64,000 nucleotides of DNA from an uncultured Bacilli bacterium (GCA_947628345.1 CANQZM010000001.1:2534-66533), one strand, 5' to 3'; shown: positions 44,963 through 55,770, counted from the stretch's first letter. The notes: generated by a model not told the origin, from the sequence alone. Translations and numbers: made by a program.

Positions 44963-45369
44963 AATTTTAAGTATTCAGCATTTGAAAAAAAGCTATCATG
45001 ATAAGAAAAGTGAAATTAAAGCTTTAGAAGATATAACATTTGATGTTTATGATAAAGAATTTATTTCAATAGTAGGACCAAGTGGATGTGGAAAGTCAAC
45101 AATACTTTCCATTCTTTCTATGTTAGAAAAAAAATCTGGGGGAATGTTCCATTTAAAAGATAATATTACTATCGGTTACATGTTACAACAAGATTCCCTA
45201 TTCTTTTGGAGAACTATTTTAGATAATTGTTTAATTGGTTTAGAAGTAACTAATAAGTTAAATGAAGAAAGTAAACAATATGTATTAGATTTACTAAAAA
45301 CTTATGGATTATATGAATTTAAAGATAAATATCCATCTAGTTTATCTGGAGGTATGAGACAAAGAGTTG
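44952..45369 (+). pseudogene. 5' part of ABC transporter ATP-binding protein (Walker A through LSGGMRQRV), truncated by a 10.4 kb insertion
   Basis: GPSGCGKST Walker A, Q-loop, ends [10 protein letters not shown]; Walker B and H-loop continue at 55771. Confidence 0.8.
45360..45369. repeat. Left copy of 10-bp direct repeat CAAAGAGTTG flanking the 10.4 kb island
   Basis: Identical 10-mer at 55761..55770. Joining the flanks reconstitutes ...[18 protein letters not shown]... Confidence 0.7.
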
Positions 45370-45425
45370 AATGAATAAAGTATAGACACTATAAAAATAA
45401 ATTTGCATCTAAAAAAAGTAAATTA

Positions 45426-46298
45426 TTACTTTTTCTTATCAATCTTATTAGTAACATATATAGTTACATATTTAATATTAAGAGTTCTATGTCTTATAAT
45501 ATCTTTTTTTAAATTATTTTCTATTCTACTAACTTGTTTTAAATTGAGTTTAGAATCAAGCTCTAAATTTAATTGTAATTTATAATAAGCTCCATATTTT
45601 ATTAAACTTATTTCTGTATTTTTTATACCTTTTTTAGAATTAATAAAATCTCTTACTTTATTAATTTTATCATTATCTTCTTCAATTTCTCCAATAAGGG
45701 ATAAAGAATTATCTATAATTATAGTAAATGAAGTTTTTAAAATAACTATACCTATTAAAATTGAGCCTATAATATCTGAATACTTTAATATATAAAATTT
45801 ATTTGAAAATTGTAATAAAATTGTAATTATAGCAACTCCTATTGTAGAATACAAATCTGCCATTGATTCTTTTACTGAAGTTATTAAAACTTGACTATTT
45901 ATCTTATTACCTATTTTATGCATTATAATTATTGCGCTTAATTTTAATATAAATACAACTGAAAGTAATATTAATACAGTAATAGGTGGAATTGTAGACT
46001 TCTTAAAAAAACTACTAATAATTATATAAATACCTAATAATAATAGTACTATTCCTATAAATAAATTAGTTAGATATTCTACTTTTCCAAAACCAAAAGG
46101 ATGATATTTAGTTGGTTTCTTTTTTGATATTTTAGCTCCTATCAAACAAACAATATCAGTAATAAAATCACTCAAAGTATGCATACCATCTGCAAATAAA
46201 GATCCTAAATTTAATATTACTCCACCAACTATTTTAATAACTGAAATAACAAAATTATTAATCATACTATAAATTAATACTTTAAATTCAAGCTTCAT
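45426..46298 (-). CDS. Cation diffusion facilitator (CDF) family metal efflux transporter
   Basis: Six TM helices with HxxxD (MHTLSDFITD) plus C-terminal cytoplasmic domain. Confidence 0.7.
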   Translation of the reverse strand: MKLEFKVLIYSMINNFVISVIKIVGGVILNLGSLFADGMHTLSDFITDIVCLIGAKISKKKPTKYHPFGFGKVEYLTNLFIGIVLLLLGIYIIISSFFKKSTIPPITVLILLSVVFILKLSAIIIMHKIGNKINSQVLITSVKESMADLYSTIGVAIITILLQFSNKFYILKYSDIIGSILIGIVILKTSFTIIIDNSLSLIGEIEEDNDKINKVRDFINSKKGIKNTEISLIKYGAYYKLQLNLELDSKLNLKQVSRIENNLKKDIIRHRTLNIKYVTIYVTNKIDKKK

Positions 46299-46372
46299 AT
46301 ATTACCACCTTAATAGTATTTTATCACAAATCACATTAAAAATAAGATTATATTAATCTTACTTTACAATTA

Positions 46373-46600
46373 TTATGTATTTTTGTAATTTATTTTTTCT
46401 AATTCTTTTAAACTTTTTTCATCTTCTGATAATTCAGAATATTCTTCTTCTGTTATTTCCTGACGTCTTGTTTGTACTGCAAAATATGTTTGTCCAAGTG
46501 CCACATTTTCTTTTCTAGAATCTGCATTTTGTACATTTAGGTAACATGCATAACGAGATAGTTCATAATCATTAATTAATTTTGATGCACCTTTTGGCAT
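46373..46600 (-). pseudogene. Truncated DinD-like fragment (75 codons) inside the island
   Basis: MPKGASKLINDYELSRYACYLNVQNADSRKENVALGQTYFAVQTRRQEITEEEYSELSEDEK matches the central part of the 12925..13794 protein. Confidence 0.6.
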
Positions 46601-46726
46601 AGATATCGTTTTGTCGATATCGACAAAATGATCTTTAATATTAATACTACTATTAATACAAGCATTTTTAGCTTTAAAATATTTAAATTTAATTTTTTCT
46701 AAGAAAAAAAGAAGATTATATTAATC

Positions 46727-53050: not shown

Positions 53051-53105
53051 AATTAATCTCTCCTTTTCTTTTTAATATTTTATTAATAACATCTTTTAAA
53101 AAAAA

Positions 53106-53690
53106 TTATCTTTTTTTAACTAACTTTATTCCTTGTTGTTCCATAAGTAAATACGCTGCATCTATATAATTTTTCCTTACATCTTCTGCATATGTTGCAA
53201 CAGCATCTTGATGAACTCTAATGTTAACATCTCTATTTACTTGATCATAGTAATTTGCAAGTCCCATTGCTCCATTAAATACGCATATATCTGTACAACA
53301 ACCTACTATATCAACATTTTTAATATTATTGGCATCCCTTACAAATTTTCTAAAAGCAGGTGCTTCCATAAAACTTGTTGAATTCTTTTCAATTAAAACT
53401 GTATTATCTAAACCCAAATATTCAGATAGTTCATCAACTACTAGTTCTTCCCCACTACCTCTAACACAATGTGGTGCTGGAAATCTTTTATGTTCAATTG
53501 AATCCTTTTCGTGTGTATCTTTAATAAATACAATTAAGTTTCCATTTTGGTGGGATTCTTTAATTAATTCAATTTGTCTAGGTATTATGTTACCTATCTT
53601 ATTATCATGTAAAACTCCTTTCTTTACAAAACCGTTAACCATATCTACAACGATTAACATTCCATTATAACATTGTAAATTCTTTATCAT
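53106..53690 (-). CDS. pncA: Nicotinamidase/isochorismatase-family cysteine hydrolase
   Basis: VVDMVNGF, K residue, catalytic Cys in CCTDICV. Confidence 0.7.
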   Translation of the reverse strand: MIKNLQCYNGMLIVVDMVNGFVKKGVLHDNKIGNIIPRQIELIKESHQNGNLIVFIKDTHEKDSIEHKRFPAPHCVRGSGEELVVDELSEYLGLDNTVLIEKNSTSFMEAPAFRKFVRDANNIKNVDIVGCCTDICVFNGAMGLANYYDQVNRDVNIRVHQDAVATYAEDVRKNYIDAAYLLMEQQGIKLVKKR

Positions 53691-54107
53691 AATATCCTCC
53701 CTTTTTGTTATTAACTATTTATTAATAACACTTTTTAAAAATTATACAAGTTTTCTCACTTGTTATTAACATTATATTAATAACAAAACAATTTGTCAAC
53801 ACTTTTTTTGAATTTTTTTTATTTTTTTTACAATAAGTAATAAAATTAATATTCTTTACTTTAAATTTATAAAATATACTATACTGAATATTAATTTTAT
53901 ATTTTTGAAAGGTGATTATATGAAATATAATATTATAGATATTATAGATAAAGATTTAACCGATAAAAAAATAGAGGAAATAATTAATAATAAATTATAT
54001 AAAATTATTGAATTTATGGAGTTAAATGCTAATATTTATGAATAATTGGTATAATGGTATCGGTTATAAATTTAACTTAAAAATTAATTATTGCCTTAAA
54101 AGTAAAG

Positions 54108-55718
54108 GTGATAATAATGAATGAAATGAAAAAGAAATTATTAAGAGTTGGTATTTATTTAAGACTATCTGATGAAGATAATGATAAACAAAATAAATTG
54201 GATAACAGTGAATCAATTAAAAATCAAAGAAATCTACTTCTAGGAGAAATAGAAAAAAGATCTGAATTTCTTCTAGTAGATGAATATTGTGATGAAGATT
54301 TATCAGGCGCAGGAACTTATAGACCAGAATTTGAACGACTTATAAGAGATTGTGAAAATGGTAAAATAGATGTAATTTTATGTAAGAGTCAATCAAGATT
54401 TTCAAGAGATATGGAAATTATAGAAAAGTATTTACATAATAAATTTATCGAATGGGGAGTAAGATTTATAAGTTTTTCTGATAATGCTGATACAGCTAAT
54501 ATTGGTAATAAAAAATCAAGACAAATTAATGGCCTAGTAAATGAATGGTATTTAGAAGATGTATCTAACAATATTCGTAGTGCTTTTAAAACCAAAATGG
54601 AACACGGAGAATTTATTTCTCCCTTTGCTTCATTTGGCTACGAGGTACCAAATTTTGATAATAATAAATTAGTAGTTGATTCTGTAGCTGCAGAAATAGT
54701 AAAAGAGATTTTCAATCTATATTTAATGGGAATGGGTTTTACAGCTATAGCAAAGTATTTAAATAATAAAAATATACCTTCTCCATCTCTATATAAATAT
54801 CAAAAAGGTATTAAATTAAATATTATTAGTAATAGACCTAGAGAAGAAATAAAATGGAGTGCAAATGCTATTAAAACAATATTAACTAATGAAGTTTATT
54901 TAGGACATTTAATCCAAGGAAAAAGAACTACTGTTAGTTATAAAAATCATAAGATTAAAAGCAAAGATAAAAGTGAATGGATAAGAATAGAAAACACGCA
55001 TGAAGCAATCATAGATGAAGATACATTTAATAAAGTTCAAATAGCTATAAAAGAAAGAACTAAACCTATAAAACAAACAGGTCTTGCTCATATTTTTTCT
55101 GGAAAAGTATTTTGTCTTGAATGTAATCAATATATGAGAAAAAAGAATTCTTCAAAACACGAATATTTACAATGCTCAAATAATCGTGATGGTTATAATG
55201 ACTGTATTAATAAACAATCAATTAGATATGATAAATTAGAAAATATAATTTTAAATGAAATCAATAAAAAAATTTGTAAATATTATAATGAAGAAAAATT
55301 AGAAGATTTAGATAAACTAAATAAAAATAATAAATTCACTGATAAAATAAAAGCCTTAAAAAAACAAAGAGAAGAAGTCAGTAATAGCATTGCAAAAATA
55401 AAAAAATATCTAAAAAAACTTTATGAAGATAAAGTAAATGGTATTATTACAGTTGAACAATTCAAAGACTTAATAAAGGATTACAATAAAGATAATGATA
55501 TTTATAAAGATAATCTTAAATCTATTGAAAGTGAAATTTCTTATTATATAAAAAAAAAAGAAAATGTAAAAAAGACTAAGAAAAAATTTAGTAAATATAA
55601 AAATCTTAATAGTTTAAATAAAGTTATTGTAGATGAATTTATTGATAAAATCTATATTGGAAAGTTAAATAAAAAATTAAATAGTAGAGATATTCAAATA
55701 AAATGGAATTTTAAATAA
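54108..55718 (+). CDS. Large serine recombinase (integrase of the NAD island)
   Basis: IYLRLSDEDN...SQSRFSRD resolvase domain, recombinase domain, Cys-rich zinc ribbon (CLECNQY...CSNNRDGYNDC), C-terminal coiled coil. Confidence 0.85.
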   Translation: MIIMNEMKKKLLRVGIYLRLSDEDNDKQNKLDNSESIKNQRNLLLGEIEKRSEFLLVDEYCDEDLSGAGTYRPEFERLIRDCENGKIDVILCKSQSRFSRDMEIIEKYLHNKFIEWGVRFISFSDNADTANIGNKKSRQINGLVNEWYLEDVSNNIRSAFKTKMEHGEFISPFASFGYEVPNFDNNKLVVDSVAAEIVKEIFNLYLMGMGFTAIAKYLNNKNIPSPSLYKYQKGIKLNIISNRPREEIKWSANAIKTILTNEVYLGHLIQGKRTTVSYKNHKIKSKDKSEWIRIENTHEAIIDEDTFNKVQIAIKERTKPIKQTGLAHIFSGKVFCLECNQYMRKKNSSKHEYLQCSNNRDGYNDCINKQSIRYDKLENIILNEINKKICKYYNEEKLEDLDKLNKNNKFTDKIKALKKQREEVSNSIAKIKKYLKKLYEDKVNGIITVEQFKDLIKDYNKDNDIYKDNLKSIESEISYYIKKKENVKKTKKKFSKYKNLNSLNKVIVDEFIDKIYIGKLNKKLNSRDIQIKWNFK

Positions 55719-55760
55719 TCTTACTCAATTAATAGTTAAGATTTGTGTCTTCATAACATT

Positions 55761-55770
55761 CAAAGAGTTG
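55761..55770. repeat. Right copy of 10-bp direct repeat CAAAGAGTTG
   Basis: See 45360..45369. Confidence 0.7.

Follow-up and report, generated by a model that had tools for sequence, protein, structure and literature searches.

The 64,000-nucleotide stretch of an uncultured Bacilli bacterium analysed here (GCA_947628345.1, CANQZM010000001.1:2534-66533; hereafter the window) contains an ABC transporter ATPase gene whose two halves are separated by a large serine recombinase (LSR) gene, an operon for the synthesis of NAD and NADP and a few further genes. The question raised by this locus is whether the intervening DNA is a mobile element and, if so, what the NAD operon contributes to its carrier. 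Positions 45370-55760 are a discrete LSR-bounded insertion in the ATPase gene, between the signature motif and Walker B. The insertion is most likely a cargo island that has captured a NAD operon and that plays a metabolic accessory role in niacin/nicotinamide salvage. The NAD-operon cargo and the newly delimited LSR family with its att sites are new, while the element type itself is already known.

The island, its empty site and the interrupted gene

The features that define the insertion are the following.
44952..45369, + strand: 5' part of the ABC ATPase gene, Walker A to the signature LSGGMRQRV; 98% identical to the intact gene of L007
45360..45369, + strand: attL core, left copy of CAAAGAGTTG; predicted crossover GT at 45366-45367
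55761..55770, + strand: attR core, right copy of CAAAGAGTTG; predicted crossover GT at 55767-55768
55771..56102, + strand: 3' part of the ABC ATPase gene, Walker B onward
56089..56880, + strand: permease gene of the same ABC operon, intact in the window

The 10-bp sequence CAAAGAGTTG occurs exactly twice in the 64 kb, at the two junctions, and coincidence is disfavoured since none of 100 dinucleotide-preserving shuffles contained two or more copies. The left half of the ATPase lies in the open reading frame (ORF) 44952..45374 and the right half is contained in the ORF 55743..56102. Deletion of 45370..55760, which joins 44952..45369 to 55771..56102, gives a 750-nt ORF encoding a 249-residue ABC ATPase, in agreement with the first-pass annotation of the stretch, which had reported both the repeat and the restoration of the frame. 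A homology search with the rebuilt protein retrieved thousands of full-length 249-residue relatives, including P0001 at 99% identity. P0001 is encoded, intact at 249 residues, by L007 (Logan SRR11585414), which matches window positions 44183-45369 at 98% identity and then passes straight from 45369 into 55761-56370 with a single copy of CAAAGAGTTG. L007 therefore contains the exact empty site that the first-pass annotation proposed to look for, and it contradicts the ancestral arrangement considered there, in which no intact ATPase allele would exist anywhere. The site is also uninterrupted in the more distant genomes L008 (GCA_964317715.1) to L011. The island and its flanks do not differ in GC content.

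An in-frame TTG supplied by the element-side arm keeps a 119-residue ORF (55743-56102), which covers the ATPase from Walker B to its C-terminus, open across attR.

Among hosts with flanks 92-100% identical, the occupancy of the site falls into states (a) to (e). It is empty in L007 (a), holds the NAD island in L002, L003 and the window (b), and holds variants of the NAD island in L092 and L093 (c). In both variants a CinA/PncC gene lies between nadD and nrtR, the Nudix gene is mostly deleted and the DinD fragment is absent; L092 has in addition an extra gene of 461 codons between the LSR gene and attR. In the sister lineage L097 a short contig holds an operon with 88% nucleotide identity (d), and in L001, L004 and L028 (CANRKG01) the same site is filled by an unrelated element of 5.9 kb whose LSR is 75% identical (e). 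Querying the contig index for exact copies of NadE and the LSR gave no match; the near-identical copies were reached through homology search.

This distribution bears on the possibility that the island holds the only nadD, nadE and nadK of a host with a reduced genome, so that its loss would be lethal or strongly deleterious. Such a capture of essential genes would fit the small genomes of the relatives (including the complete 1.31 Mb OZ006981.1), the presence of the island in several strains as well as in the ∼88% identical sister lineage L097, and the restriction of NadE proteins of at least 88% identity to island-type copies, the next homologues, at 82% or less, being in other arrangements. 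However, the 98% identical L007 has an empty site and the close strains L001, L004 and L028 hold a different element there, which indicates that cells of this species group can live without the island; the PnuC/NadR-type salvage seen in L094-L096 may serve in these cells. It is thus unlikely that the island has become indispensable in this manner.

Attachment sites and the recombinase family

The recombinase module and the element-side arms of the attachment sites are located as follows.
45368..45389, + strand: element-side arm P', TGAATGAATAAAGTATAGACAC, the reverse complement reading GTGTCT-N7-ATTCA; arm also conserved at attL in 46 related loci
53920..54045, + strand: conserved 41-residue ORF directly before the recombinase gene, kept intact by 46 related loci
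54108..55718, + strand: LSR with Resolvase, Recombinase, Zn-ribbon and DUF4368 domains
55745..55766, + strand: element-side arm P, GTGTCTTCATAACATTCAAAGA; conserved in the attR of 58 related loci and of L001, L004 and L028

The LSR matches PF00239 (2e-19), PF07508 (3e-27) and PF13408 (9e-12), all above the Pfam cut-offs, and contains the catalytic-serine motif YLRLSDED. Its nearest annotated relative is TndX of Tn5397 (38% identity over the N-terminal 63%), and no close relatives were present in phage records or in a scan of IMG/VR. Between the stop codon of the LSR gene (55718) and the repeat lie 42 bp, rather than the 34 bp originally annotated. A scan of the LSR against one genome per GTDB species produced 80 loci, all in metagenome-assembled genomes of uncultured gut 'Bacilli', 'Tenericutes' or 'Mycoplasmatota', with OZ006981.1 as the one complete genome. 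The taxa concerned are Bacilli incertae sedis; the name 'Candidatus Scybalousia' led to a homonym in the Bacteroidales, which is not relevant here. Where the LSR is at least 55% identical, 63 of 70 species loci are flanked by halves of the same ABC ATPase gene, and in the remaining seven the contig is too short to reach a flank; the ten loci with an LSR below 50% identity have no ATPase-gene flank and are inserted elsewhere. The 63 loci in one gene point to a large site-specific element family with a single gene-internal target.

Comparison of the junctions across these loci allowed both attB and attP to be delimited, a step that the first-pass annotation had suggested. At attR the sequence GTGTCT-N7-ATTCA runs up to the gene, and at attL the gene is followed by TG-N-ATGAAT-N7-AGACAC. 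Perfect matches to GTGTCT-N7-ATTCA in the window are confined to 55745-55762 (+) and 45372-45389 (-). Since the motif does not occur internally, the island is one unit, and a composite or tandem island was rejected for the window. With misspaced arms (GTGTCT-N7-CATTCA) all matches were chance ones, whereas the corrected pattern matched just the two island ends.

Both junctions are retained in 36 elements, and within each of these attL and attR are identical over a block of 2 to 14 bp that always includes GT; the block is reduced to GT alone in L017 and to AGT in six other elements. This shrinkage of the shared core suggests that the crossover is the canonical 2-bp LSR dinucleotide, GT, flanked by the inverted arms GTGTCT-N7-ATTCA. 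A 10-bp repeat had been considered unusual for an LSR; judging from these junctions it is a fortuitous microhomology of attP and attB around GT, neither a duplication nor an anomaly. A target-site duplication was rejected because the length of the shared core varies among the relatives. The reconstructed attP is GTGTCTTCATAACATTCAAAGA[GT]TGAATGAATAAAGTATAGACAC, with GT at the centre of symmetry, and the predicted attP junction of the island in the window contains GTGTCTTCATAACATTCAAAGAGTTGAATGAATAAAGTATAGACAC. The comparative att analysis is consistent with a reaction in which the LSR would recombine attP, GTGTCT-N7-ATTCA-N3-A[GT]T...TGAAT-N7-AGACAC, with a gene-internal attB at GT. The target of the family, in uncultured gut Bacilli with small genomes, is the stretch from the signature motif to Walker B in the ATPase gene of one NMT1-type ABC transporter.

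The ORF upstream of the LSR gene has the consensus M-x-YNVIDI..TD..LK.IINKKLYKIIE.MEF and substitutions distributed over the three codon positions as 319/147/387, which is typical of a translated gene. It matches no known family, and it could be an accessory or directionality factor.

The elements of the family are 3.3 to 13 kb in size and occur in two module layouts, with the LSR gene adjoining attR, as in the window, or adjoining attL in the opposite orientation. The latter layout was observed in L028, L029, L033-L035, L037, L038, L044, L047, L055 and L072. The attP arms keep their orientation relative to the ABC gene while the LSR flips, which implies that an inversion of either the LSR module or attP took place within the family. 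A census of cargo (104 protein clusters from 35 elements, compared with Pfam and PADLOC) identified HTH regulators, P-type and heavy-metal ATPases, MMPL proteins, a van-like set (Ddl, alanine racemase, VanW and a response regulator), Fic, AbiEii, a YhcG nuclease and PADLOC candidate systems including the Bro-N/DinD-like PDC-S13, together with Mob_Pre relaxases and one type IV secretion system (T4SS) coupling protein in a few elements. NAD genes were found in none of the 80 related loci. The island has no capsid, portal, terminase, tail or lysis genes according to Pfam, PHROGs and PADLOC and is therefore not a prophage, its non-integrase PHROGs matches being only metabolic or 'other', and the original description of a non-phage integrative element stands.

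The position of the family inside a coding sequence could also reflect a switch, in which conditional excision restores the ABC transporter gene in the manner of skin/SpoIVCA, fdxN/XisF or gin. Excision would exactly restore the reading frame, insertions into this gene are seen in at least 63 species, and XisF is the best NCBIfam match of the LSR, although at 121 bits against a cut-off of 375. On the other hand, cargo and occupancy vary as they do for opportunistic mobile elements, and evidence for a developmental programme in these bacteria is lacking. The substrate-binding-protein gene of the same transporter is also split, by a 21 kb insertion, and a single excision would therefore not restore the transporter. 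Regulated restoration of the gene is very unlikely.

The NAD operon, its candidate operators and its probable function

The cargo genes and regulatory sites are listed in order of their position in the window; palindromes are given without a strand.
45426..46298, - strand: CDF-family cation efflux transporter (PF01545, 8e-39; TIGR01297, 154 bits, cut-off 82)
46373..46600, - strand: 75-residue fragment, DinD/Bro-N-like (similar to PADLOC PDC-S13), absent from the variants L092 and L093
46727..47524, - strand: NAD kinase NadK (PF01513 and PF20143 above cut-off)
47530..48372, - strand: NrtR-type regulator with Nudix-like and NrtR winged-helix domains (PF21906, 2e-16; PF00293 above cut-off)
48460..49023, - strand: NadD, nicotinate-nucleotide adenylyltransferase (TIGR00482, 148 bits, cut-off 112)
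49039..50961, - strand: NadE, 640-residue glutamine-dependent NAD+ synthetase with CN-hydrolase and NAD synthase domains (NF002730, 893 bits, cut-off 473)
50985..51575, - strand: Nudix hydrolase with intact Nudix box; closest solved structures are ADP-ribose pyrophosphatases (NudF)
51557..53050, - strand: PncB, nicotinate phosphoribosyltransferase (NF006695, 597 bits, cut-off 469)
53069..53089: third, weaker NrtR-box-like palindrome with one mismatch, between pncA and pncB
53106..53690, - strand: isochorismatase-fold nicotinamidase, PncA-like (PF00857)
53707..53729: proximal candidate NrtR operator, GTTATTAA-N7-TTAATAAC, in the 5' untranslated region just upstream of the pncA ribosome-binding site
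53762..53784: distal candidate NrtR operator, GTTATTAA-N7-TTAATAAC, with the -10 hexamer in its spacer
53771..53799, - strand: perfect sigma-70 consensus promoter, TTGACA-17-TATAAT (12/12), upstream of pncA

Pfam and NCBIfam recover the gene content first reported for the island, namely the pncA-like gene, pncB, the Nudix gene, nadE, nadD, nrtR, nadK, the CDF gene and the DinD fragment. The genes of the series pncA-pncB-nudix-nadE-nadD-nrtR-nadK all point the same way, and the gaps between them measure -19 to 87 bp. PncB, NadD and NadE all exceed their NCBIfam equivalog cut-offs, which upholds the assignment of a complete NrtR-associated Preiss-Handler route together with NadK. The PncA-like protein has no NCBIfam match; its best match in the PDB is the Pyrococcus horikoshii nicotinamidase 1IM5, with which the Asp/Lys/Cys triad and the DxH...H metal site align, and its gene always adjoins pncB in the relatives. 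The Nudix box of NrtR is degenerate (RVLKTE), as expected of a sensor rather than an enzyme.

The two perfect 23-bp palindromes upstream of pncA are predicted NrtR operators of the kind that the first-pass annotation proposed to search for upstream of pncA and nadE. None of 100 shuffles of the window matched them. A search with the 21-mer TTATTAA-N7-TTAATAA at two mismatches gave matches no commoner than expected by chance in this AT-rich window, so that significance is limited to the perfect 23-mers. Upstream of pncA, conserved arms around variable spacers recur in every related cluster examined (L092, L093, L097, L094-L096 and L099), and these include clearly chromosomal clusters. The third palindrome is also present at the equivalent position in L092, L093 and L097.

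Chromosomal NadE homologues at 70-73% identity share the gene order of the island. In L100 the cluster pncA-pncB-nudix-nadE-prs-nadD-cinA-nrtR-nadK lies between the genes for 5-formyltetrahydrofolate cyclo-ligase and DNA polymerase I (polA), and in L094-L096 an extended cluster is flanked by a pyrophosphatase gene and coaE. Since gene order and operators are common to these chromosomal clusters, the cargo appears to be a captured copy of a housekeeping operon typical of the lineage.

The extended cluster of L094 (5704-19680) is a 14 kb NAD supercluster, as are those of L095 and L096, with the Preiss-Handler genes, CinA, NadK and NrtR. It additionally encodes an NH3-dependent NadE, a UMPH-1 5'-nucleotidase, PnuC-NadR, two radical-SAM proteins and an ADP-ribosylglycohydrolase.

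Published NrtR sites are 21-bp palindromes, mostly with a GT-N7-AC core, and the regulon of Clostridium acetobutylicum has been described as #nrtR-pncA-#pncB-nadD-nadE (PMC2330246). Apart from the missing core, the geometry of the island palindromes and the make-up of the operon agree with these descriptions. The island operon would be transcribed as a single unit from the sigma-70 promoter, which the two 23-bp palindromes overlap or follow. By analogy with the established mechanism of NrtR, including that in Pseudomonas aeruginosa (PMC11535050), the regulator would bind the palindromes and repress transcription, and ADP-ribose, a breakdown product of NAD, would release it. The derepressed operon could then convert nicotinamide or nicotinate to NAD and NADP, with the Nudix enzyme clearing ADP-ribose. 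On this model the island would give or restore niacin/nicotinamide-based NAD(P) synthesis to its carrier strains at the cost of an inactivated ABC transporter.

Several observations weigh against a mobile, NrtR-controlled salvage island. The palindromes do not contain the GT-N7-AC core reported for most NrtR sites, and both NrtR (NF050029, 147 bits against 400) and NadK score below their NCBIfam equivalog cut-offs. No recombination directionality factor was identified for the island. Relaxase, oriT, coupling protein and T4SS are all absent from it according to Pfam, PADLOC and PHROGs, and the element is thus not conjugative. In addition, the attP junction expected of an excised circle or a free attP was sought with one specific and one family-wide pattern, and neither had a match in JGI metagenome contigs, in IMG/VR or in any of the fetched loci, so that current mobility is deduced from the population polymorphism only.

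The predicted response to ADP-ribose also accommodates a role in counter-defence or as a NAD buffer, in which the operon would rebuild NAD after the action of NADase immunity (Thoeris, SIR2, DSR and SEFIR) or of toxins, to the benefit of the island, of co-resident mobile elements or of the host. Phages rebuild NAD with NARP1, NARP2 and NARP3 against such systems, and in P. aeruginosa the NADase toxin NatT derepresses the chromosomal NrtR-controlled salvage pathway pncB-nadD2-nadE and is in turn neutralised by it (PMC11535050). A Nudix-isochorismatase-PncB-NadD-NadE set is present in Bacillus phage G, and sister elements at the same site carry AbiEii, Fic and PADLOC candidate systems. However, the operon is collinear with the chromosomal housekeeping clusters of the relatives and has the same operators; one of its products, NadK, plays no part in the rebuilding of NAD; its route is a slow one of four steps that consumes ATP and phosphoribosyl pyrophosphate, where phages use two-gene shortcuts; NARP genes are absent from the island; PADLOC identified no defence or anti-defence system on the island and no NAD-depleting system adjacent to it; and none of the 80 related elements has NAD genes. 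The counter-defence reading of the first-pass annotation, although plausible as a mechanism, is therefore unsupported here, and such a role is quite improbable. Equally doubtful is the broader proposal of a portable, self-sensing NAD-restoration module that confers tolerance to NAD-depletion defences and is possibly the only NAD pathway of the host. If the operon did buffer NADase immunity, NAD-reconstitution counter-defence would extend beyond phages, with this as the first case on a non-phage LSR cassette.

Known systems and neighbouring insertions

The salvage island is a clean, fully delimited case of a whole cofactor pathway of five enzymes, with its sensor-regulator and operators, moving as one minimal LSR cassette. 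It is carried by uncultured gut Bacilli whose genomes are very small, in an environment where vitamin and cofactor auxotrophies shape ecology. The LSR family is previously undescribed, and its attB, attP architecture and GT crossover over more than 60 species could be used in the search for integrase tools.

The closest known elements are Tn4451/Tn4453 (TnpX) and Tn5397 (TndX) of clostridia and enterococci, which likewise have a single LSR with a DUF4368-type C-terminal extension, a 2-bp crossover for excision and integration, and accessory cargo. Some sister elements carry Mob_Pre relaxases, as Tn4451 does, but the island itself has no mobilisation gene. It differs from Tn4451 and Tn5397 in having one gene-internal target in at least 63 species, a GT rather than GA crossover, and a cofactor-biosynthesis operon in place of antibiotic resistance. 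The staphylococcal cassette chromosome (SCC) and related ccr cassettes (SCCmec and the Enterococcus cassette chromosome) resemble the island family in being LSR-driven, non-conjugative and non-phage, with variable cargo and with different cassettes alternating at one conserved chromosomal site. SCC elements, however, insert at the 3' end of rlmH without destroying the gene and usually encode CcrAB pairs, whereas the island has a single LSR that splits a coding sequence and that scores far below the cut-offs of the Ccr models. Gene-intervening elements (skin/SpoIVCA, fdxN/XisF and gin in gerE) share with the island an LSR element in a coding sequence whose excision would restore the gene, but the island has a large variable cargo and evidence for programmed, developmentally timed excision is lacking.

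Known NrtR regulons contain the same enzymes, a Nudix-like winged-helix regulator and 21-bp-type palindromes upstream of pncA and pncB, with ADP-ribose as the inducer (PMC2330246, PMC11535050). The island differs from them in its mobile context, in the addition of a catalytic Nudix enzyme and NadK, and in its operator arms, TTATTAA/TTAATAA, which have no GT-N7-AC core. The phage pathways NARP1 (Adps and Namat), NARP2 (Nampt and Nmnat) and NARP3 (PnuC and NadR) rely on other enzymes, and the island encodes none of them. Bacillus phage G (gp273-283) is closer, with Nudix, isochorismatase, PncB, NadD and NadE genes together on a mobile element, and a Preiss-Handler set on such an element is consequently not without precedent. 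Neither NARP1/2/3 nor the phage G set includes NrtR or NadK, and their carrier is a phage. Homologues of PncB were found in 25 phage and 117 plasmid records. A PncB on a Bacillus velezensis plasmid was dropped as a precedent because the record looks chromosomal (comQXP, degQ and yue genes).

The same ABC operon is interrupted elsewhere. Comparison with L008 and L012 shows a second insertion of ∼21.3 kb (23224-44557) that splits its NMT1-type substrate-binding-protein gene. It has a different LSR of 567 residues (33568-35271), and its cargo comprises a hybrid histidine kinase, an AMP-binding enzyme, an MMPL transporter, TetR, SDR and DUF2201 proteins and a purine nucleoside phosphorylase. A third, unrelated LSR family, 22-25% identical to the island LSR, interrupts the permease gene at codon ∼207-212 in L013, L014, L020, L030, L033, L039, L051, L054 (13587-18842), L057 and L067. 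With insertions in the ATPase, substrate-binding-protein and permease genes, this one operon is a landing pad for three LSR families.

The content of the second insertion varies by strain, the segment 35513-43647 being absent from L092. Positions 38100-42500 form a module resembling a diversity-generating retroelement, also present in L093, with a reverse transcriptase (40500-41567, PF00078) and a bAvd-like accessory protein (41896-42480) that scores below the Pfam cut-off; adjacent unannotated ORFs of 534 and 133 residues (38126-40128) could be the variable target. An IS30-family transposase ORF of 303 residues (42709-43620) is absent from the otherwise collinear L092 and L093, suggesting a recent insertion. 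Bro-N/DinD-like genes (PADLOC candidate PDC-S13) recur in and around the NAD island, with the 75-residue fragment inside it and two full copies just outside (56945-57859 and 60268-61125), and intact genes of this type are frequent in the sister elements, between the LSR gene and attR.

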